A stretch of 64,000 nucleotides of DNA from contig OY729431.1 in the NCBI GenBank assembly GCA_963422395.1, positions 576,001-640,000 on the forward strand, in the 5' to 3' direction. Both the position numbers and the translations under genes were made by a program. The DNA is from Vicinamibacteria bacterium. GTDB taxonomy: Bacteria; Acidobacteriota; Vicinamibacteria; Marinacidobacterales; Marinacidobacteraceae. Below, one piece after another: positions 4,265-64,000 of this stretch. How positions within the stretch are numbered: position 1 is the stretch's first letter; the number at the start of each line of letters is the position of its first letter. Under the pieces are notes generated by a model, which searched no databases, was not told the origin of the DNA, and worked only from the letters and a program-made list of their open reading frames with translations.

Positions 4265-4645
4265 CTATTCGACGAAGAGTTTCGCGCCGCGCCGGAGGAC
4301 CACCGCGGCAGGGTGGGCCGCCGCCGCGGGAGGGTGGGAATTCGACCAGCTGAGCTGAAGCCCCAGCAGGGTGAGGAGGCCGGCTCCCGTCAGGCCCAGG
4401 GCGACGCCTACCTGGATTCCCTGGATCTTTCCGGTGAGCACCGCCGAGGCGATGAGGACCAGCCATACGACGGAGGCGATCGGCACGAGCCAAATCATGA
4501 CCCGGCGGAACGATTTCTTCTGGCCTGATTCGATCTTTTCGAGTTTTCGCGCCTCTGCCTCCGCCTCATCGCGAAGCTTCGGATCCTCTGTCAGGAGGCT
4601 CTCGGACGGCGTGACGGGAGGTTCGACGAACGGCTCGTCCTTCAC
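4265..4645 (-). CDS. Small two-TM membrane protein translationally coupled to the Panacea gene (candidate toxin)
   Basis: GTG start overlaps the Panacea stop (4642-4645); acidic N-terminus followed by two hydrophobic helices. Confidence 0.6.
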   Translation of the reverse strand: MKDEPFVEPPVTPSESLLTEDPKLRDEAEAEARKLEKIESGQKKSFRRVMIWLVPIASVVWLVLIASAVLTGKIQGIQVGVALGLTGAGLLTLLGLQLSWSNSHPPAAAAHPAAVVLRRGAKLFVE

Positions 4646-5181
4646 TTCGGCTCCTCGATCTCCTCGTTTGCCAGCGACTTCCGATGCAGCTCGAGCATCT
4701 TCCGGTAATAGAACTCGATGAGGTCGTTCGACATCCTCGCGTGACGGCGGCCTTCCCGGTAGGTCAGCTCCCAGGGCGAACTGGGGGCATGGGTGAGTCT
4801 CGACAAGCGGGAGGCGCTGAGCGGCCCATAGCGTCCGACCGCGTCCAGCATCACCTTTCGCGCCTCGGGATCGAAGTCTTTTTTCGGTTTTTCCGATTCT
4901 AGATTCGACGCTTTCACCGGCTGGGCGCCGAGGTGCTTCACGGCGTGGTACAGCTCGGGGAACACCGGGCCGTACTGCCAAGCCTCCAGCGGTCCGCGGA
5001 CGAGCGGAATCCGGTAGAGGCCGAGCATCCAGCCGTGCGCGAGAAAAACGATCTTGAGGAGCTTCATCGGCGTCATGGGGAAGCCCTGTCTCTCTGATTC
5101 GATGAGGAGGAAGCGGGCGACGGCGATCGCCGAGTGCGCCACCAGCGGCTCCAGACTGTCCCGACTGCGGCGCTTCCACAT
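4642..5181 (-). CDS. Panacea-domain (DUF4065/SocA/GepA) antitoxin
   Basis: TPMKLLKIVFLAHG, EAWQYGPVFPELY and LSRLTH..SPW motifs. Confidence 0.9.
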   Translation of the reverse strand: MWKRRSRDSLEPLVAHSAIAVARFLLIESERQGFPMTPMKLLKIVFLAHGWMLGLYRIPLVRGPLEAWQYGPVFPELYHAVKHLGAQPVKASNLESEKPKKDFDPEARKVMLDAVGRYGPLSASRLSRLTHAPSSPWELTYREGRRHARMSNDLIEFYYRKMLELHRKSLANEEIEEPK

Positions 5182-52683: not shown

Positions 52684-55600
52684 GTGCCGAAGATCCGCGA
52701 ACTCCTCGAACGCGACCCCAGGACCACCGCGCTCGCCAACCGGGGGCAGGCGCGCCTCGGCGAGGCCGGCGCCGGAGAGCGCGGCGACGAACTCCGCGCC
52801 GAGCTGGAGAGCTTCGTCTGCAGCGGGCGTTTCGCCGAGGGCCTCCAGCGAATCCTGGATCGGTTCCTCGCCGCGCTCGACAGTCCGCGGCAGGAGGCGG
52901 TGTGGGTCAGCGGCTTCTTCGGCAGCGGGAAGTCGCATCTGCTGAAGATGCTCGTCCACCTCTGGAAGAACACGCAGTTCGAAGACGGGGCGACCGCCCG
53001 AGCTCTGGTCCCCGGGGGCCTGCCGGCAGACATCCGCGCCGCGTTCACCGAACTGGACACGCGGGCGCGCCGTACCGGAACCCCGCTCGCCGCGGCGAGC
53101 GGAACCCTGCTCGGCGAGACGGAACGGGTCCGCGCCGCGGTGCTGGCGATCGTGCTCCGAGCTTGCGGCCTCCCGACCGGGGTGCAGCAGGCGCGGTTCT
53201 GTTTCTGGCTGCGAGAGCAGGGGCACCTCGCCCCGGTGCGCGCCGCGGTCGAGGCCTCGGGAAAGCCTTGGCATCGGGAGCTGAACAGCTTCCTGGTGAG
53301 CCCGAAGATCGCCGAGGCGCTCCTCGAAGCGCGGCCCGATCTCGCTGACGGGCCGAAGGAGCTCCGGCCGCTGCTCGCCAGCCAGTTCCCGCCCCTCAGC
53401 GGCGATCTGACGACCGACGAGTTCGTGGACCTCGCCTGGAAGGCACTGTCGGGCGGCGGCCCGCCGGAAGACGGCGCCCAGCCGAAGGCGGAAATGCGGA
53501 CGAAGGCGGAAATGCGGCCGGCGGCGGAAATGCGGACCAAGGCGAAAACGCTGCCGCTGACGGTCCTGGTGCTGGACGAAGCCCAGCAGTACATCGGCGA
53601 GTCCGGAAACCGCTCGGCGGTCTTCACCGAAGTCGCCGAGGCGATCCAGACGCAGTTCGCCAGCCGCGTCGCCCTCGTCGCCTCCGGCCAATCCGCACTC
53701 TCCCAGACCCCCGCGCTGCAAAAGCTCCGCGACCGGTTCCGCAACCAGATCGAACTGACCGACGCCGATGTCGAAGAGGTGACCCGCAAGGTGGTGCTCC
53801 ACAAGAAGGCGAGCGCCGCTGCTTCGATCGAAGCGATGTTCGCCGCGCACGAGGGCGAGGTCTCCCGCCACCTGCGGGACACCAAGATCGGAGCGCGCGC
53901 CGAAGATCGCCGCACGCGGGTAGACGACTACCCCTTGCTCGGCGTCCGCCGGCGTTTTTGGGAGGCGTGTCTGCGGGCGGTGGACAGCGGGGGAGTCCAC
54001 AGCCAGTTGCGCTCGCAGCTGCGGATCCTCCACGACGCGCTCTCCGCCCTCGCCGACCGGGAGCTGGGTGCGCTGATTCCGGCGAGCGATCTCTTCCACG
54101 CTCTCGCGCCGGGCTTGCTGGGTTCGGGGGTCCTGCTGAACGAGATCCACACCCGGATCGGCAAGTTGGCAGATCAGGGATCGGAAGTCGGGACCGAGGA
54201 GGGGCGGCTGCGCCGCGACCTCGCCGCGCTCGTCTTCCTGATCGGAAAGCTGCCGCGCGAAACGGCGGTGGACCTCGGCGTGCGGGCCGACCCCCCGACG
54301 CTCGCCGAGCTGCTGCTCGCCGACCTCGCCGCCGACTCCGGCCCCTTCCGGAAGCGGGTCGAGGGCGCCCTGTCCGCGCTGGCCGGCGAACGGGAACGGG
54401 TGCTGATGCGGGTGGGCGGCGAATACCGCCTGCAGACCACCGAAGGCGCTGCCTGGGACAGCGAGTTCCAGCGACAGACGACGGCGGTCCGGAACGACGA
54501 GGCGGCCATCGGCGCCGAGCGCGACCGGTTGTTCGGCGCCGCGCTGCAAGAAACGGTCGCTGCGATCAGACTGCGGCACGGCGCCGCGAAAGAACGCCGG
54601 CCGCTTCGCCTCCACCGCGGCGCCGAGCCTCCGCCGCCGGGCGCCGAGGGAGTGACCGTCTGGCTCGGCGATGGCTGGATGGGTTCGGAGCGGGAGTTCG
54701 AGGAGCAGGCGCGGGCCGCCGGGACCGACGATCCGACGCTCCATGTCCACCTTCCGAAACGGGATGGGGACGCGCTGCGCGACCGCATCGTGGCGGCGCT
54801 TTCGGCGCGGCGGGTTCTCGATCACCGCGGTACCCCGCAATCCCCCGAGGGACGCGAAGCGCGCGCCGGCATGGAAAGCCGCCGGTCCGAAGCGGAGAAC
54901 GGGCGCGACGGCATCGTCCGCGGCCTGCTGCGGGAGGCGAGGGTGCTGCAGGGCGGCGGGAACGAGATCTCCGTCGGGGCCGGCGGTCTCGCGGAACACA
55001 TCGAGAAGGGCGCCCGGGCATCGCTCGACCGCCTCTATCCGCGCTTCGCGGAGGGCGACGGCGCCGCCTGGAGCGCGGCGGTGAAGCGCGCCCGCGAGCA
55101 GTCCGAGCGTCCCTTCGCACCGCTCGGTTGGGAGCAGGATGCCGCCGACCACCCGGTGGCGAAGGAAGTCATGAGAACGGTCGGGGCCGGGGAGCGCGGC
55201 AACCGAGTCCAGAAGGCGCTCCGGGTGCCGCCGTTCGGCTGGCCGCAGGACGCGGTGGACGCCGCCCTGATCGCTCTCCACGCCGCCGGACGGCTGCAAG
55301 CCGCCCGGAACGGACAGCCGGTCGCCGCCGGCCGCCTCGATCAGGCGGGGATCAAGACGACCGTCTTCCGTCCGGAGCAGGTGGTCCTCGCCGCGGCCGA
55401 GCGGATCGCGCTCCGCGGACTGTTCCAGCGAGCCGGCATCTCCGTCCCCTCGGGCGAAGAGGAACGGGGCGCGCGGGAGTTCCTCGCGGCGCTCCGGGCT
55501 CTCGCGGCGCGGGCGGGGGGCTCCCCGCCGCTCCCGCCCGTACCGGATTCGTCTCCGCCGGTTTCGGCACTCCTCGAGGATCTAGGACAGCGGACCGGAA

Positions 55601-56355
55601 ACGACCAGCTGCGGGCGATACATCGGCACCAGAAGGAACTCGAGCCGCTCCCCGAGGCCTGGAAGGCGCTCGCCGGGCGAGCCGAACCGCGCCAGCTCGC
55701 CTGGAAGCAGGTGCAGGAGCTCTGCCGGTATGCGGAGGACATACACCCCGAGCGCCGGTCGGTCGTGGAGGAGACCGCTCTGGAACTCGAGGCGGTCCGG
55801 GGCCGGCGGTCGCTGCTCGCGGAAACCGACCCGCTCGCACCGCTGATAGCGAAGCTGGCCGCCGCGCTGCGCACCGAACTGACGGCGCTCCACCGCGCCT
55901 TCGACGACGCGGTCCGAGAAGCGGACGAACGGCTGGCAGCCGACCCGCACTGGACCGGGCTCGACCCGGAGGAGCGGAGGAAGATCCGGCGGGCACACCA
56001 TCTGTTCCCCCCGCCGCCGCTCGAAATCCCGACGGACGAGGACCTGCTGCGAACGCTCGGCGAACGGCGGCTCTCCGCCTGGCGGGCGGAAGCCGATGCG
56101 GTGGGTCCGCGGCTCGAGCGCGCCCTCGCCGAAGCGGCGGAAAAACCTGCCGCGGCCGAAAAACATGCCGCAGCGGGGAATGTCACCGCGCCCCGAACCC
56201 CGGAGCCAGACGACCCCGAAGCCCTCGAGACGGCCGCCGCGGTCCCCCTCCGCCGCACCACCCTGGCCGACGAAGCGGCGGTCCGGGCCTGGCTGCGGGA
56301 AACCGAGACCGCGCTTCTCGAAGGAGTCCGCAAGGGCCCGGTTCGAGTGGAATAG
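52684..56355 (+). CDS. brxC: BREX P-loop ATPase BrxC
   Basis: WVSGFFGSGKSH Walker A; LVLDEAQQYIG Walker B; DRF, YP and PPFGWP motifs; 1223 aa. Confidence 0.93.
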   Translation: MPKIRELLERDPRTTALANRGQARLGEAGAGERGDELRAELESFVCSGRFAEGLQRILDRFLAALDSPRQEAVWVSGFFGSGKSHLLKMLVHLWKNTQFEDGATARALVPGGLPADIRAAFTELDTRARRTGTPLAAASGTLLGETERVRAAVLAIVLRACGLPTGVQQARFCFWLREQGHLAPVRAAVEASGKPWHRELNSFLVSPKIAEALLEARPDLADGPKELRPLLASQFPPLSGDLTTDEFVDLAWKALSGGGPPEDGAQPKAEMRTKAEMRPAAEMRTKAKTLPLTVLVLDEAQQYIGESGNRSAVFTEVAEAIQTQFASRVALVASGQSALSQTPALQKLRDRFRNQIELTDADVEEVTRKVVLHKKASAAASIEAMFAAHEGEVSRHLRDTKIGARAEDRRTRVDDYPLLGVRRRFWEACLRAVDSGGVHSQLRSQLRILHDALSALADRELGALIPASDLFHALAPGLLGSGVLLNEIHTRIGKLADQGSEVGTEEGRLRRDLAALVFLIGKLPRETAVDLGVRADPPTLAELLLADLAADSGPFRKRVEGALSALAGERERVLMRVGGEYRLQTTEGAAWDSEFQRQTTAVRNDEAAIGAERDRLFGAALQETVAAIRLRHGAAKERRPLRLHRGAEPPPPGAEGVTVWLGDGWMGSEREFEEQARAAGTDDPTLHVHLPKRDGDALRDRIVAALSARRVLDHRGTPQSPEGREARAGMESRRSEAENGRDGIVRGLLREARVLQGGGNEISVGAGGLAEHIEKGARASLDRLYPRFAEGDGAAWSAAVKRAREQSERPFAPLGWEQDAADHPVAKEVMRTVGAGERGNRVQKALRVPPFGWPQDAVDAALIALHAAGRLQAARNGQPVAAGRLDQAGIKTTVFRPEQVVLAAAERIALRGLFQRAGISVPSGEEERGAREFLAALRALAARAGGSPPLPPVPDSSPPVSALLEDLGQRTGNDQLRAIHRHQKELEPLPEAWKALAGRAEPRQLAWKQVQELCRYAEDIHPERRSVVEETALELEAVRGRRSLLAETDPLAPLIAKLAAALRTELTALHRAFDDAVREADERLAADPHWTGLDPEERRKIRRAHHLFPPPPLEIPTDEDLLRTLGERRLSAWRAEADAVGPRLERALAEAAEKPAAAEKHAAAGNVTAPRTPEPDDPEALETAAAVPLRRTTLADEAAVRAWLRETETALLEGVRKGPVRVE

Positions 56356-56373
56356 CCGGAAAGGAACGACACC

Positions 56374-56516
56374 ATGAAAACCTCCGACCCAAACCGGTCG
56401 TGGCCATCGAGCCGCGGGGCAGCGAACGGACTTCGCAGGTCGTGAAGAATGCTGCGGACCGGATCGTGAAGTGGAACACCGACAGCATCGTGCAAGCGAT
56501 CCGGGAGCTCGCATGA
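56374..56516 (+). pseudogene. Internally deleted TIR-like (DUF1863/MTH538, ThsB-like) gene
   Basis: RBS plus MKT start joined out of frame to KPVVAIEPRGSERTSQVVKNAADRIVKWNTDSIVQAIRELA, a typical DUF1863 C-terminus. Confidence 0.7.
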
Positions 56517-56998
56517 CGAGCGAGCCCGAGCAGCGAGAGCGCGAGTCGCAAGAGCCCGAACGACGCGAGTTGTTCGCGATCTACCAGCTCCACGCCGATC
56601 TCGCCGACCGGGTGAGCCAGCGGCGGGAGGGCGCGAACCGGCTGTTCGTGAGTCTCCTGACCGGTCTGCTGGTCTTCGGTGCCGTGTTCCTCCGGTTCGG
56701 GACCGGGGATCTGGAAGCGAATGCAGTGATGGCCTGCTTCGGCATCGTGGGAGCTCTGCTCTCCATCGCCTGGTTCGCCGTCATCCGCTCTTACCGCCAG
56801 CTGAACACCGGCAAGTTCCAGGCGCTCCAGGAACTCGAGGGGAAGCTCGCCTACCCGTTCTTCCGGCGCGAATGGGAGCTGCTCGGCGAAGGCCGGGATC
56901 GGAGCAGGTATTGGAAACTCACGGTGGCGGAGACGCTGCTGCCGATCGTCTTCGGACTGCTCTTCCTCGGAATTCTCCTGTTCATAATCCTCCGGTGA
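56513..56998 (+). CDS. RipA/8xMP-like small membrane effector protein
   Basis: ADRVSQRR..ANR.F, W...I.SYRQLN.GKF..L.ELE..L and F.REW; 3 TM; ATGA-coupled to the TIR remnant. Confidence 0.75.
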   Translation: MTSEPEQRERESQEPERRELFAIYQLHADLADRVSQRREGANRLFVSLLTGLLVFGAVFLRFGTGDLEANAVMACFGIVGALLSIAWFAVIRSYRQLNTGKFQALQELEGKLAYPFFRREWELLGEGRDRSRYWKLTVAETLLPIVFGLLFLGILLFIILR

Positions 56999-57021
56999 TA
57001 AGCAGAAGGAGACCCCTGAAG

Positions 57022-57330
57022 ATGTCCGCGAATTTCGAGACCGATCTGCTCCGTCCGGTGGCGGTCGCGCCGCGCGAGGGTTTTCGCATCTGGTTGCGTT
57101 ACGCCGACGGCGTGGAGGGCGAAGTGGATCTTTCCCACCTCGCCGGGAAAGGCGTTTTCGCCGCCTGGCTCGACCGGACCTTCTTCGAACGGGTCCACCT
57201 CGGCGGCGGATCGGCCATCGCCTGGAGCGATGAAATCGACCTGTGCGCGGATGCACTCTATCTCCGGCTCACCGGGAAACGGCCCCGAGAGATATGGCCC
57301 GGACTGAAGGAACCCGTTCGGAATGCCTGA
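57022..57330 (+). CDS. DUF2442 (DhiA-like) antitoxin
   Basis: IWLRYADGVEGEVDLS, GVF, IAW...IDLCADALY. Confidence 0.85.
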   Translation: MSANFETDLLRPVAVAPREGFRIWLRYADGVEGEVDLSHLAGKGVFAAWLDRTFFERVHLGGGSAIAWSDEIDLCADALYLRLTGKRPREIWPGLKEPVRNA

Positions 57331-57587
57331 AATAAGCCGCTTCTACGGCATCGTGATCCAGATCTTTTGGGACGATCACGGCCCACCGCATTTCCACGCG
57401 AAATACGCTGATTCCGAGGCGCTGTTCGAAATCGAGGACATCTCGATGCTTCAGGGGGGACCTCCCCCGACGCGCCCGTGAGTTGGTCATAGTCTGGGCC
57501 ACGCAACATCGGAGTGCGTTGCAAGAGGCTGGGTGGGCACGGGCGCAACGCCATGAGGCGCCGGGAAAGATCGAGCCGCTCGACTGA
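57323..57587 (+). pseudogene. DUF4160 (DhiT/HicA-like) toxin, +1 frameshift in a G6 run at 57454-57459
   Basis: MPEISRFYGIVI...DHGPPHFHAKY; removing one G restores GDLPRRARELV.VWA...KIEPLD. Confidence 0.85.
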
Positions 57588-57617
57588 GTGTCGGGACGGC
57601 GGGGAAGGGACACGATC

Positions 57618-60600
57618 GTGGGTCGCGCGCTGGATCGGGAGCTGCGCCAGCAACTGGCGAAGGCGGTCCGTTCGGCGCGGAGGACCGCCGAGGCGGGAGC
57701 GCGGGCGGCACTCTCGGCGCTTTCGGTCGAAAGGGCGAAGGCCGATCCGTTCCTCTCCGCCGAAGAAAGACAGCTCCGGCGGCAGCTGCGGGCGCACGGG
57801 CGGCAACTCGGCGACCGGCAGCGAATCGGCAAGGCTGGCGAGGAGCAGGAGATCACCCGCCTGGCGCACGAGGTGGCCTACGAGCACTGGCACCGGATGC
57901 TGTTCGCCTGCTTCCTCGCCGAGAACCAGCTGCTGATCGAACCGGAATCCGGGGTCGCAGTGTCCCTCGACGAGTGCCGGGAGCTGGCGCGGGAGGGCGG
58001 CGAGAATTCCGGGAGCCCCTGGGCGCTCGCCGGGCGGTTCGCCGAAGCGATGCTGCCGCGCATCTTCCGCCCCGGCGATCCCTCGCTCGCGGTGCGGCTT
58101 CCCCCGGAGACCCGGCAGGCGCTCGAGGAGACGCTCGCCGAGCTGCCGGCGGCGGTCTTCCGCGCCGACGACGCGCTCGGCTGGACCTACCAGTTCTGGC
58201 AGGTCGACCGGAAGGACGAGGTGAACCGCAGCGGGAAGAAGATCGGGGCCGACGAGCTGCCGGCGGTCACCCAGCTCTTCACCGAGCCCTACCTGGTGCG
58301 CTTCCTCTTCCACAACACCGTCGGCGCCTGGCGGGCGGGGAAGATCCTCGAAGCGCGGCCCGAGCTCGCGGCGGGCGCCGAGAGCGAGGCCGAGCTCCGC
58401 CGCGCGGTCCGGATCGAGGCGGGAGGCGGCTACGACTTCGAGTACCTGCGCTTCGTCCGCGAGCCGTCCGCGGGCGATAACGGGGGCGAAGACGGGGGCG
58501 TCGGGCGCTGGCGGCCCGCCGCCGGGTCGTTCGGCGAGTGGCCGAGCTCCGCCGCCGAGCTGCGGGTGCTCGATCCCTGCTGCGGCAGCGGGCACTTCCT
58601 GGTCGAGGGCCTCCAGCTGTTCGTCCGGCTGCGGATGGAGGAGGAGGGGCTCGCGCCCGAAGAGGCGATCGGCGCGGTGCTGCGCGAAAACCTCCACGGA
58701 CTGGAGCTCGATCCGCGCTGCGCCCAGCTCGCCGCCTTCGCGGCGGCGTTCGCGGCTTGGAAGCTGGCCGGTAAGTTGGCCGGGAAATCTGCCGGGCGGG
58801 GGATCGAGCTGCCGCCGTTCCGGATCGCCTGCTCGGGGCTCGCCCCGAACGCGACGAAGGCGGAGTGGCTGGCGGTCGCCGAAAAAGCGTCGGCAGCGGC
58901 CGGTTCCGCAACCCGGAAAGACTCCTCCGAGAGACGGGAAATCCTCACCTCGGAGGCGCTCCGGCAGACTCTCGGGGCGCTCCACGACCTCTTCGTCCAG
59001 GGACCGACACTCGGTTCGCTCCTCGATCCGCGCGCCGCCGGCGAGAGCATGTTCGCGGCGCGGTTCGAGGCCGTGCGGCCGCTCCTCGACGCGGTGCTCG
59101 CCGAGAAGGAAGTGGACCCCGAGCGGCGGGAGCGGGCGGCGGCCGCCGCCGGGATGGCGGAAGCGGCCAATCTGCTCACCGCCCGCTACTCGCTGGTGAT
59201 CACGAATGTGCCCTACTTGTCGCGGGGGAAGCAGGACGGCGCGCTCCGCGCTTTCGCCGACGAGCGCCTTTCAGCGGCGAAGGGAGACCTGGCGACGATG
59301 TTCCTCGTCCGCTCGTTCGGCTGGCTCGGCGAAAGCGGGACCGCGGCGGTCGTCTCCCCGCAGAATTGGCTGTTCCTGAAGAGCTACCGGAAACTCCGCG
59401 AGAACCTGCTGACCGACCGGCGCTGGCGGATGGTGGCGCGCCTCGGCGCACATGCCTTCGAAGATTCCGGAGCCTTCACCGCGTTGGTCATCGTCTCCGC
59501 CGATAAAACCCGGGGGGGGGGGGGGGGGGGAGAGAGACTGTCGTTATGGATGTGTCCGCCCCACCGGGCCAGACTCCGATCCTGGCCCCGGAGAAGGCCC
59601 GCCTGCTCCCCAGCTGCCGCATCCATTCGGTGCGGCAAGCCGATCAGCTCAGAAATCCGAACTCTGTCGTCAGCATGGCAGTGTCCAACGAATCAGGACT
59701 ATTGGAATTACACGCATCCGGCCTGGCCGGCATGCTGACCGGTGACACCCCTAGATTCCTCAGCATGTTCTGGGAGTTCGCCGACATCTCGGAGTACTGG
59801 GCGTTCCTGCAATCGACCGTCGGTGAATCCATTCCGTTCGGGGGGCGTTCTGCCCTGGTCCAGTTCGATGGTCCGAATCGGCAGGATGAGCGTCCCTCTC
59901 CCTATGAACGCCTGCACGATTGCTACCGAAGAGGGAACAAGGCTTGGGGAAAGGAGGGCGTATCCGTTAGTTCGATGGGCGATCTCCCCGTCACGCTCTA
60001 CACCGGAGAACGATTCGATCCCAATGTTGGGTTAGTTCTGCCGAAGAATCCCGAGACGCTGCCGGCGGTGTGGTGTTTCTGCGCCTCGCCGGAATACGCC
60101 TGCCTAGTCCGCGAGGTAGACCAGAAACTCAATGTGACGAACGCGACCCTCGTCCAGGTCCCCTTCGATCTGGACCGCTGGAAGCGGGTCGCCGCCGAGC
60201 GCTACCCGAACGGCCTCCCGGAGCCCTATTCCGACGACCCCACCCAGTGGGTCTTCCACGGCCACCCCTGCGGCAGCGTCGTCTGGGACGAGGAGACGAA
60301 GCGGCTCGCCGAAGGTCCCCTCCGCACCGACGAGGCGGTGCTGCAGGTCGCAGCGGCGCGGCTCCTCGGCTACCGCTGGCCTGCGGAACACGACCCGGCG
60401 ATGCGCCTCGCCGAGGAGCAGCGCGCCTGGGTTTCCCGCTGTTCCGACCTCCACGAGTTCGCCGCCGCCGACGGGATCGTCTGCCTCCCCGCCGTGCGGG
60501 GCGAGCCCCGCGCCGAAGAAAGGCTCCGCGCACTCCTCGCCGCCGCCTACGGCGCAGCGTGGTCCTCGACGACCGAACAGCGCCTGCTGCGCGAGGCGGG

Positions 60601-61336
60601 GAGAGACGGCAAACCCGCGGCGAGCCTCGACGCTTGGCTCGAAAAGCACTTCTTCGAAGAGCACTGCCGCCTCTTCCACCACCGCCCCTTCGTCTGGCAC
60701 CTCTGGGACGGCCTCCCGGACGGCTTCTCGGCACTCGTCGCCTACCACCGGCTGGCAGGCCCGGACGGCGAGGGCCGAAGAACGCTCGAAGCGCTGACCC
60801 ACAGCTATCTCGGCGACTGGATCGACCGCCAGCGGGGAGAACTCCGCGAGGAGAGACCCGGTGCCGAAGGCCGGCTCACCGCCGCCCTCGAACTCAAGAC
60901 CCAGCTGGAGCGCATCCTGGAAGGGGAACCGCCGCTCGACCTCTTCGTCCGCTGGAAGCCGCTCCATCGCCAGCCGCTCGGCTGGGACCCGGACCTCGAC
61001 GACGGCGTCCGGCTGAACCTCCGCCCCTTCCTCCGGGCGGAGCTCCGCAAGGGCGGCCGGAGGGGGGCCGGCCTCCTCCGTTGGAAACCGGAACTCCACT
61101 GGAACAAGGACCGCGGCAAGGAACCCCGCACCCTCCGCGCGAAGCGCAGAGGCGAAGCGGGCGAGGAGATCCGCCCCCGCGCCGACTTCCCCTGGTTCTG
61201 GTCCTGCCCCGGAGACGGGAGCGAATCCGAACGCACCGACTTCTTCCCCGGCGGCCCCGCTTTCGACAGCCATCGCTGGAACGACCTCCACTATACGAAC
61301 GCCGTGAAACGCGCCGCCCGCGCCCGCCGCGAGTGA
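57618..61336 (+). CDS. pglX: BREX adenine methyltransferase PglX, out of frame at the G19 tract
   Basis: LGWTYQFW, PAVTQLFTE.Y, LDPCCGSGHF and NVPY; C-terminal half (FHHRPFVWH, WDPDLDDGVRLN, RWNDLHY) is in a +2 frame after 59530. Confidence 0.9.
59512..59530 (+). repeat. G19 homopolymer inside pglX
   Basis: 19 consecutive G; G17 or G20 would restore the frame. Confidence 0.9.
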
Positions 61337-61855: not shown

Positions 61856-63067
61856 ATGGAGTGGCTCGAAGTCATGAATCACATCGAGGCCGGCGAGAGC
61901 CGTACGGTTGAATTCAAGGAAGGATTCGATACCGGCAAGATCGGACCAGCGGCCTGCGCCTTCGCGAATACCGACGGAGGCGTCGTGATCTGCGGCGTCA
62001 ACGACGCCGGCGCCATCGTCGGCGTGGAGCGCGATCCCGACTCGGTGCACGAGCGGCTGACCGCCTTCCTGGGAAACGGATTCAACTATCCCATGACCGC
62101 TGCCTGTGGCCGTTATCAGGATCCGCAAGGCTGGGTCCACTGGGTTCAGGTACCGAAACAACGGAATCCCGAACCGATGCGATTCCGGGATGTCGCCTGG
62201 GTGCGTCGAGAGCGAAGCAGCGTCCGACCCTCTCCGAGCGAATTGGAGGGACTGAACAATCTGTTCGGATATGTGATGACCGAAGATCAGATCGTGTCCA
62301 GCGCAACCACTGAGGATATCGATGAGAGCTGTTTTCGGAATCACCTCGAACGGCAACGGTTTTCGAAGCGCAGGACGCGCCGACCGAATATCCTGGACGA
62401 CTATCGGAATTTCGATGTAGTGCGGGATCTCGAGAGAAGGCCGACACCGACCCTGTACGGCTTGCTGGCGTTCGGAACGAATCCACAACGGTTTCCGAAC
62501 ATGCGCCATCTACTGGTGCGAAACACCGCCTACGCGGGGATTGGCCGCGCAGCGGGGGTATCCCTGGCCATGGACGCCCGGGGGCGGCTCGCCGAACAGG
62601 TGGAAGGGAGTCTTCACTGGGCGCAGAGCCTGGGGCGGCAGGAATCCTATGGGACGGCGAGGCGGTCGGATCGGTTCGTATTGCCGATCCCCGCGCTGCG
62701 CGAGGCGATCGTGAACGCCGTCATCCACCGCGACTATGCGATCACCGGGACGCCGATCACGGTGGATGTGTTTCGGGATCGAGTCGAGATCGCCAGCCCG
62801 GGAACGCTTCCCAACGGAATGACGCTTTCGAGGCTACGACGCGGCGGCAACATCCGAACCAGAAACGAAACGATGGCGCATTACGCCATCGTGGAGGGAC
62901 TCATGGAATCGCGGGGAATGGGCTGGCCGGTGATCGAGGACGCGATGCACGAGTTCAATGGCACGGATCCCCGGATCGAGGAAGATCGCGAGGGCGCCTG
63001 GGTCCGGATAACTCTGGTTCTAGAACCAGGGAATACCGATGCGGCACATCCGCCCGATGCCGGCTGA
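61856..63067 (+). CDS. AlbA_2 (Schlafen-like) plus HATPase_c_4 domain protein, copy 1
   Basis: GESRTVEFKE, CAFANTDGG...GV.D; ALREAIVNAVIHRDY, EIASPG and RN. Confidence 0.9.
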   Translation: MEWLEVMNHIEAGESRTVEFKEGFDTGKIGPAACAFANTDGGVVICGVNDAGAIVGVERDPDSVHERLTAFLGNGFNYPMTAACGRYQDPQGWVHWVQVPKQRNPEPMRFRDVAWVRRERSSVRPSPSELEGLNNLFGYVMTEDQIVSSATTEDIDESCFRNHLERQRFSKRRTRRPNILDDYRNFDVVRDLERRPTPTLYGLLAFGTNPQRFPNMRHLLVRNTAYAGIGRAAGVSLAMDARGRLAEQVEGSLHWAQSLGRQESYGTARRSDRFVLPIPALREAIVNAVIHRDYAITGTPITVDVFRDRVEIASPGTLPNGMTLSRLRRGGNIRTRNETMAHYAIVEGLMESRGMGWPVIEDAMHEFNGTDPRIEEDREGAWVRITLVLEPGNTDAAHPPDAG

Positions 63068-63193
63068 AGGCGCGTCGCTGCGCCACATCGAGGCGATCAG
63101 TGGCAGGCCCGACGGAAACTCGACCCTTCCTGTGGGCGGAACTGCAGGAAAGGCAGCGATCGAGGATGCCAGCGGGGCGAGGAAAGTGACCTG

Positions 63194-64000
63194 ATGGACT
63201 GGAGCGAAGTGGAACGCCGCATCGCCGCCGGCGAGGACGAGCGCACCGAGTACAAGCGCGATGTATCCGATCTGCGAGCCGTGGGCCGGGCGCTTTGCGC
63301 CTTCGCCAACGGCGACGGAGGTCTGCTGATACTCGGGGTCGATGATTCCGGCGCGGTGGTCGGCACGCCCCAGGATCCCGAGAAGGTGCAAGAACGGCTG
63401 ACCGCTTTCCTCCACAGTGGGCTCGGCAAACCGGTTACCGCCCGCTGCGGGCGCCGGCGGACCGAAGGCGGGTGGGTTCACTGGATCGAAGTCCATCGCC
63501 ATCAGCGGGGCTACGAACCGTTTTCCCACGATGGACGGTTCTGGGTCCGGCGGGGCCGGGCGACGGCGGCGCCCTCCCCAGCGGAACTCCAGGAGCTGCT
63601 GAACGCCTTCGGTCTCGTTCTCACCGAACGGCAGATCGTCCCCTCGGCATCTGTCGAAGACCTCGACTTCAGCGCGGTGCGCTCCTTCCTGAGGGCGCAG
63701 GGGCTCGATACCGACGAGCCGCCGCAGCCGGCGCGCGAGGACGATCTGCTGAACGCCAGCATCGCCGATACGCTGGACGGCACCCTCCGGCCGACGCTCT
63801 ACGGACTCATGGTGTTCGGACGAGACCCGCAGGCATACCCCCACACTCCGAGCCTCTTCGTCCAGTGCGCGGCCTACGGCGGGGCGGACCAGGCCGCCGA
63901 AGTTCTGAGCGCCGGAGAGGGGAAAGGAAGACTGGAGGATCAGGTGAACCGCGCGATGGGCTGGTTCCGCAGCCTGGGCCGCAAGGAGGTGTACGAAGGG
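63194..64000 (+). CDS. AlbA_2 domain protein, copy 2 (runs off the window)
   Basis: MDWSEVERRIAAGEDERTEYKR, CAFANGDGG.LILGVDD and PTLYGL; colinear with copy 1. Confidence 0.88.
   Translation, partial: MDWSEVERRIAAGEDERTEYKRDVSDLRAVGRALCAFANGDGGLLILGVDDSGAVVGTPQDPEKVQERLTAFLHSGLGKPVTARCGRRRTEGGWVHWIEVHRHQRGYEPFSHDGRFWVRRGRATAAPSPAELQELLNAFGLVLTERQIVPSASVEDLDFSAVRSFLRAQGLDTDEPPQPAREDDLLNASIADTLDGTLRPTLYGLMVFGRDPQAYPHTPSLFVQCAAYGGADQAAEVLSAGEGKGRLEDQVNRAMGWFRSLGRKEVYEG

Follow-up and report, generated by a model that had tools for sequence, protein, structure and literature searches.

What is the short interval between brxC and pglX in the BREX locus of this Vicinamibacteria bacterium, where two ends of a TIR gene stand ahead of an intact gene for a small membrane protein, and is that protein still able to act? 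We analysed the interval within a stretch of 64,000 nucleotides (contig OY729431.1, positions 576,001 to 640,000 of the forward strand), called the window throughout, together with related loci from genomes and metagenomes. We find most of the TIR gene deleted, and we consider it probable that the interval is what remains of a two-gene BREX cargo module of Thoeris-like make-up and that the surviving protein, a member of the 8xMP family, is the inert orphan of a recent deletion.

A type 1 BREX locus with an insert between brxC and pglX

A type 1 BREX locus occupies the 3′ part of the window. The core genes on either side of the insert, and two further genes within it, are the following.

52684..56355, + strand: brxC, the BREX ATPase and the upstream neighbour of the module (PADLOC BrxC PDLC02489, 1165 bits, model 2-1145 of 1146)
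57022..57330, + strand: DUF2442 gene of the DhiA-like antitoxin family, further cargo (Pfam PF10387, E 8.1e-11)
57323..57587, + strand: DUF4160 gene, DhiT-like (Pfam PF13711, E 3.6e-11)
57588..61336, + strand: pglX, the BREX methyltransferase (PADLOC PglX PDLC02528, in two parts, N = model 3-568 and C = 600-1121)

The type 1 set of brxB, brxC, pglX, pglZ and brxL is present in one locus, with PADLOC matching BrxB at 2.6e-64 and placing PglZ at 837 bits and BrxL at 904 bits, both full length, just downstream of the window; BrxA was recognised by eye only. The GC content drops from ~0.73 to 0.60-0.66 over 56300-57500, which marks an insert. The DUF2442 and DUF4160 genes in it also match NCBIfam DhiA (E 2.1e-6) and DhiT (E 6.6e-13), respectively, each under the cut-off of its model. 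A scan between brxC and pglX found no promoter-like sites and no + strand terminator-like sites, and because no such site separates brxC, the cargo and pglX, the 8xMP gene is probably still transcribed, together with BREX.

BREX loci are known to harbour embedded defence systems. Extra defence genes stand between BREX core genes in such loci, and the same arrangement is seen here, in two bays. The second bay lies between pglX and pglZ (window 61856-64000 and L181 1-13739, genome 637000-650739) and contains three Schlafen/AlbA_2 genes, the first of which also has HATPase_c_4, as well as a Ppl-like gene (PADLOC Ppl 1.7e-142); it is followed by the full-length pglZ, brxL and a SoFic/PDC-S04-like Fic gene.

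The TIR gene is reduced to a stump and a 3′ remnant

Two pieces of a TIR gene follow brxC.

56374..56445, + strand: 5′ stump of a thsB-like TIR gene, with ATG, MKT and then an out-of-frame continuation to TGA, 23 codons (sequence and translation)
56382..56516, + strand: 3′ remnant of the TIR gene, its last 44 codons and stop, one frame off the ATG at 56374 (family profile)

An AAGGAA Shine-Dalgarno-like site stands ahead of the ATG at 56374, and the 23-codon reading frame, which past MKT bears no resemblance to anything, ends with the stop at 56443-56445. Intact homologues begin MKT/MRT-Y/H-N-L-F-I-S-H-S-W. The frame of 56373 reads HENLRPKPVVAIEPRGSERTSQVVKNAADRIVKWNTDSIVQAIRELA, a 47-residue peptide that ends at TGA 56514-56516. 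We made a family profile from 29 intact partners encoded upstream of 8xMP homologues, and it matched 56382..56513 over positions 93-136 of 136 (55.8 bits, E 3.5e-15); the remnant was the sole match of this profile in the whole 2.9-Mb genome (E 7e-15). The invariant columns of alignment A2, 11 in number, all fall in this stretch, and the remnant keeps every one (11 of 11). The first-pass annotation had read the site as an RBS-ATG-AAA-ACC start joined out of frame to a TIR C-terminus and had set the TIR similarity of the peptide as a check; sequence and profile confirm the first, and the HMM search with the family profile the second. PADLOC ThsB1 matched the remnant weakly (E 0.0016). Pfam gave no match to it, and is blind to the remnant because its TIR model covers residues 7-107 of the intact partners and the remnant lies mostly behind that.

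Of the conserved ~136-aa protein, three codons at the start and 44 at the end are left in the window; ~89 codons between them (residues ~4-92) are missing, and the deleted length is not divisible by three. Among the residues lost is the invariant Glu of SKWIxxE; this is E84 of alignment A3, found in 12 of 12 intact partners, which we take to be the catalytic glutamate of the TIR. Since positions 4-92 including this Glu are gone, the window copy, lacking the intact TIR with its glutamate that marks Thoeris, is not a functional Thoeris system, and we conclude from the sequence that its TIR signal maker is dead. The remnant carries no stop within its 47 codons and is too well preserved to be old, so the deletion looks recent.

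The junction in read-derived contigs

Contigs of runs X2, X3, X4 and X5 (4 samples, 2 studies) span 56200-57399 with 0-1 differing letters, the coverage of X5 coming in two pieces (56249-56900 and 56936-57399), and some of these runs may have been the source of the window. In none of the four do the contigs have an insertion or joint at the junction, 56374-56516. It is hardly credible, then, that the TIR deletion is an assembly or sequencing error and that the true genome has an intact TIR gene: the assembly and the read-derived contigs do disagree at two nearby sites, by one base at 57453 and three at 57530, but the contigs from both studies hold no inserted sequence at the junction itself, and a loss of ~270 nt is unlike a homopolymer error. 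We conclude that the TIR junction is not an assembly artefact.

Two further breaks in the island could be set beside it. The DUF4160 gene is frameshifted in the assembly at the G6 run 57454-57459, where each of the four runs has contigs shorter by one base (and by three at 57530). Since none of the four runs shows the frameshift, the population probably has an intact gene, and the assembly probably carries small indel errors near it. The reading frame of pglX switches at a 19-G run (59512-59530), splitting the N and C parts; the length of this run is not trustworthy, and the public-run contigs are cut there. The run has the look of a phase-variable tract, or else of an error in homopolymer length, and pglX is reported to phase-vary through G tracts in Streptomyces. 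We also weighed a general decay of the island, and the DUF4160 result and the full-length PglZ and BrxL led us to reject it. Apart from the TIR deletion, the only clear lesion, the island is complete, and the earlier statement that only the TIR had been deleted holds, the pglX break falling in a run of untrustworthy length.

An intact 8xMP protein follows the remnant

The gene behind the remnant, and the site from which it would be translated, are as follows.

56503..56507, + strand: GGGAG Shine-Dalgarno-like site for 8xMP, within the TIR remnant and 5 nt before the ATG (sequence)
56513..56998, + strand: intact 8xMP-family gene, 161 aa, 3 TM, presumed effector (Pfam PF24838, E 3.6e-32)

The 8xMP ATG overlaps the stop of the TIR remnant (ATGA, 56513-56516). 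Its product, P0002, belongs to Pfam 8xMP over the whole model (111.5 bits against a cut-off of 30, residues 22-159 aligning to model 2-135 of 136) and has three hydrophobic segments by hydropathy (41-64, 67-94 and 134-161), which bears out the earlier description of an ATGA-coupled, intact, 8xMP-like protein with three TM segments. There were 1053 homologues at E<=0.001, the best 120 of which are 60-77% identical to P0002. P0002 keeps all family-invariant residues, and 33 of these 46 fall in the N-terminal helix and the TM2-TM3 loop, two Arg/Lys-rich stretches that are predicted to be cytosolic. The protein has no recognisable ligand-binding domain, which counts against a signal-gated effector.

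An AF2 model of P0002 (pLDDT 78.3) gave a helical hairpin plus a third TM helix. When four copies were modelled the self-association score was 0.59, compared with 0.04 for the best of 3 controls, and the protomers were packed side by side through the conserved stretches, with at least 87% of contacts agreeing among runs and partner pLDDT of at least 72. In calibration 20 of 30 solved homomers attained the mark for self-association, as did 1 of 23 solved single chains; since this calibration used two copies and four were modelled here, it gives rough support, and it speaks for association and not for copy number. Pfam 8xMP includes clusters named 'RipA family octameric membrane protein', and an octamer is here taken from the family name alone.

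No NCBIfam model scored above its cut-off for P0002 at E<=10, a PDB sequence search with the 8xMP profile returned 0 matches at E<=1, Foldseek of the P0002 model against the PDB returned nothing at E<=0.001, and the VIA wide fold search returned generic helical bundles only (Z<=10.6). PADLOC has no 8xMP model, and we found no paper on the 8xMP / PF24838 family in the literature. The ESM Atlas clusters nearest P0002 carry PF24838. Viral contigs held one distant 8xMP relative only (35%), and 8xMP was present in 11 of 400 other genomes of the phylum sample.

8xMP genes stand beside ThsB-type TIR genes

A scan of species-representative genomes gave 233 confirmed 8xMP loci, from which the best 80 were kept; these come from 10 named phyla and are 51-72% identical to P0002. 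Among these best 80 of 233, a TIR gene or its remnant lies directly upstream of 8xMP in 63, the linkage that the first-pass annotation had named as a check on its reading; 43 of the 63 have an intact TIR, 12 a TIR in pieces and 8 a partial remnant, and the other 17 loci have no adjacent TIR. In most kept loci the start of 8xMP abuts, or is overlapped by, the end of a ~136-aa gene. The intact partners are ThsB_TIR (PF08937, formerly DUF1863) in 7 of 7 tested, at E 1e-14 to 4e-17, and those tested also match PADLOC ThsB1 at ~1e-10. The family thus shows the ThsB-type TIR in an operon with an effector that characterises Thoeris, while the window has only the stump and the 44-codon remnant.

Several of these loci depart from the common layout. 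L013 (3509-5441) carries tandem modules, a TIR with a 177-aa membrane protein that looks by eye like SLATT/DUF4231, then a TIR with 8xMP. In L038 (3865-4989) the TIR is split by ~700 nt holding a 260-aa ORF, with profile positions 1-118 upstream of this insert and 111-136 directly before 8xMP. In L005 / L084 (G006) the 8xMP frame lacks its usual stop and extends into a 936-aa open frame, by either fusion or a lost stop, and the TIR upstream is in pieces.

The 8xMP gene is full length in 77 of the best 80 of 233 loci, the 17 without an adjacent TIR and the 20 with a broken one notwithstanding. The mean 8xMP profile score is 234.3 bits in TIR-less or broken copies and 234.3 in paired copies, and no difference by TIR state was detected (Mann-Whitney p = 1.0 and 0.40). 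A full-length 8xMP with an absent or broken TIR is common (37 of 80), and this counts against an inert orphan, which would be expected to decay. It favours instead a self-sufficient membrane module, for example a sensor-effector or a BREX accessory, that works without a TIR and for which the TIR would be dispensable and costly; we regard this as possible, though on the unlikely side, and return to it below.

One TIR clade with exchangeable partners

The TIR was also used as the anchor. At least 527 metagenome matches to the profile of 8xMP-linked TIRs were obtained and the best 80 were kept. An 8xMP gene is adjacent in 46 of these 80 (29 downstream and 17 upstream), a ~315-aa caspase-like gene in 28, and a SLATT_1/DUF4231 partner in 2, one SLATT partner matching at E 4e-14; one locus has both 8xMP downstream and the caspase-like gene upstream, and in the other 5 the flanks are too short to tell, hold no recognised neighbour or hold a further TIR gene alone. 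The caspase-like neighbours are Peptidase_C14 in 5 of 5 scanned. The reverse order, 8xMP and then TIR, in 17 of the 80 metagenome loci is that of a sub-clade (L126, L133, L138, L140, L143, L150, L151, L154-L157, L161, L162, L164 and L169, as well as L137 and L141, where 8xMP is in two pieces).

The TIR clade that exchanges partners is narrow (54-74% identity). A FastTree built on 109 TIRs interleaves 8xMP-linked with caspase-linked members; at least 9 label changes are needed, and starred branches force at least 3, the topology being soft because the alignment has few columns. According to a recent preprint, TIR with a caspase-like protease constitutes type IV Thoeris (Yirmiya et al., bioRxiv 10.64898/2025.12.03.692087) and TIR with SLATT type VII, and one TIR cluster typically serves several effector types (bioRxiv 10.64898/2025.12.03.692087). 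We therefore find one TIR clade with alternative known effectors: because the same clade swaps 8xMP, caspase-like and SLATT partners, interleaved on the tree, 8xMP behaves, by its genomic company, as an exchangeable Thoeris effector. The earlier proposal that the ancestor was a Thoeris-like TIR with a non-canonical membrane effector is well supported by this partner swapping together with the ThsB_TIR matches and the upstream linkage.

Recurrent loss of the TIR, inside and outside BREX

BREX genes were found in 10 of the 80 8xMP-anchored loci by tblastn with the window's BREX proteins. In 7 loci besides the window (L006, L007, L010, L018, L020, L042 and L071), from Pseudomonadota, Spirochaetota and Acidobacteriota, the module has brxC upstream and pglX downstream, as expected if, as had been proposed, it is BREX cargo. 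The TIR-8xMP cargo differs from BREX cargo in general in recurring at this one brxC/pglX junction in the three phyla.

Within the window's own family, 8xMP is present in 7 of 24 genomes. The order in G014 is brxC, intact TIR, 8xMP, DUF2442 and DUF4160, and G015 likewise has an intact TIR-8xMP pair, while the TIR is in pieces in G006 and has left no trace in G003 (= L010) and G008, which have brxC and 8xMP. In L006, from another phylum, 8xMP begins 25 nt after brxC and no TIR could be traced. BREX-embedded copies that lack the TIR are thus four: the window, L006, G003/L010 and G008. In L010 a 117-aa hydrophobic ORF (4571-4924), for which there was no significant Pfam match, stands in the place of the TIR between brxC and 8xMP. 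The TIR losses in G000, G003 and G008 look independent.

These losses, the untraceable TIR of L006, and the rarity of broken 8xMP in the TIR-anchored set, where only 2 of the 46 adjacent copies are in pieces (L137 and L141), add to the case for an 8xMP that works without a TIR. Several points stand against it, however. The two sets come from different collections and each comprises only the 80 best-scoring matches to its anchor, which favours intact anchors in any comparison of decay. The window's deletion is apparently recent, so an intact 8xMP here says little. The dN/dS of 0.14 between G000 and G003 was obtained at a dS of 1.36 and therefore reflects mostly the time before TIR loss, the values among family members being saturated or uninformative on the time since. 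Finally, no alternative conserved partner is adjacent to the TIR-less copies. We suggest that the one-sided decay points either to a cost of the TIR or to an independent value of 8xMP. A more specific form of the latter, in which 8xMP is an uncharacterised class of Thoeris effector that, in contrast to other effectors, is repeatedly kept after TIR loss for a TIR-independent role, such as an abortive-infection back-stop at the membrane, built into BREX operons at the brxC/pglX junction, appears to us rather doubtful.

It could also be that the roles are reversed, with the TIR as a toxic, NAD-depleting effector and 8xMP as a membrane sensor, anchor or regulator, such that loss of the TIR would leave a harmless sensor. 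The recurrent loss of the TIR and not of 8xMP fits the loss of a toxic gene, and the limitations section of the preprint allows that the TIR might be an NAD-depleting effector in unverified Thoeris-like types (bioRxiv 10.64898/2025.12.03.692087). Against this, the same narrow TIR clade pairs with caspase-like proteases and SLATT proteins, effectors in the verified types IV and VII, and the TIR protein consists of the ~136-aa domain alone, lacking any sensor or membrane part. We consider a reversal of roles improbable.

No second TIR found in the genome

The first-pass annotation had allowed that the surviving protein might respond to a TIR elsewhere. The genome is a single contig of 2.9 Mb that is 93.8% complete, and family searches of it gave 0 matches to ThsB_TIR PF08937, TIR_2 PF13676 and TIR PF01582, and 0 to SMODS PF18144. 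Divergent members may escape such searches: Pfam PglZ PF08665 gave no match genome-wide where PADLOC found PglZ (837 bits), the missed gene sitting ~7.6 kb past the window's end. A six-frame search of the genome with the clade profile is a firmer negative, and it returned nothing besides the remnant. The suggestion of a TIR acting from elsewhere is thus not supported. For the two other fates that the first-pass annotation had offered, an 8xMP that acts alone or one that guards BREX, the recurrence of TIR-less copies is no more than a hint. With no other TIR found in the genome, the window's 8xMP has most likely lost its activating input.

A proposed mechanism

We propose that the ancestral module consisted of a ThsB-type TIR signal maker and, behind it, a translationally coupled 8xMP membrane effector, the two lying between brxC and pglX. 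In intact relatives the ~136-aa TIR would sense infection and make an ADP-ribose-derived signal. The 8xMP protomers would form a ring whose conserved cytosolic face, rich in Arg and Lys, would bind this signal, and the ring would then breach or depolarise the inner membrane, aborting infection. In P0002 the putative basic pocket between protomers would involve R33, R37, R38, R43, R92, R95 and K101. In the window the internal ~89-codon deletion would have killed the TIR and orphaned 8xMP, which keeps its own ribosome-binding site.

The window copy, itself a dead system, directs attention to a large and unstudied TIR-8xMP module that is widespread and unusually conserved across phyla. Its recurring BREX position and one-sided TIR loss make it a natural system for how composite defence islands gain and shed parts.

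Comparison with known Thoeris systems

It is plausible, from the linkage and partner exchange described above, that the TIR-8xMP module class is a new Thoeris variant. No mention of it in print was found; the accessible text of bioRxiv 10.64898/2025.12.03.692087 does not contain 8xMP, PF24838 or RipA, though its Figure 1/Table S1, with 29 putative effector types, may list it, and in the same text the type IX effector is unnamed.

Type V Thoeris (ThsB + ThsF/DUF2270, PF10028) is a parallel in layout: there too a two-gene operon pairs a small ThsB-type TIR with a small protein that has 3 TM. Models of ThsF/DUF2270 show a homo-oligomeric ring in which positively charged pockets lie between the protomers (bioRxiv 10.64898/2025.12.03.692087), and 8xMP resembles ThsF, so described, in its 3 TM, its conserved basic cytosolic face and its predicted self-association. 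The two have no sequence kinship, however: P0002 is not a member of ThsF/DUF2270, with no PF10028 match at E<=10 and an hhalign probability of 1.4%.

In types VII (ThsB + SLATT) and II (ThsB + Macro-TM) the TIR signal is thought to gate a membrane-disrupting effector, as we propose for 8xMP. The 8xMP protein differs from those effectors in having no Macro match and no match to SLATT/DUF4231 (none at E<=10 for P0002), and in having 3 TM and no separate ligand-binding domain. If our reading is correct, TIR immunity would gain in 8xMP a membrane effector that is signal-gated and minimal in size (~150 aa).

The TIRs of type IV Thoeris are close kin of the 8xMP-linked TIRs, with Peptidase_C14 genes beside 28 of the best 80 TIRs and the two kinds of TIR interleaved on the tree. 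The type IV effector is a protease, whereas 8xMP is a membrane protein. The type IV signal is N7-cADPR according to bioRxiv 10.64898/2025.12.03.692087, and if the module works as proposed, the kinship of the 8xMP-linked TIRs with type IV ThsB would predict the ligand of 8xMP.
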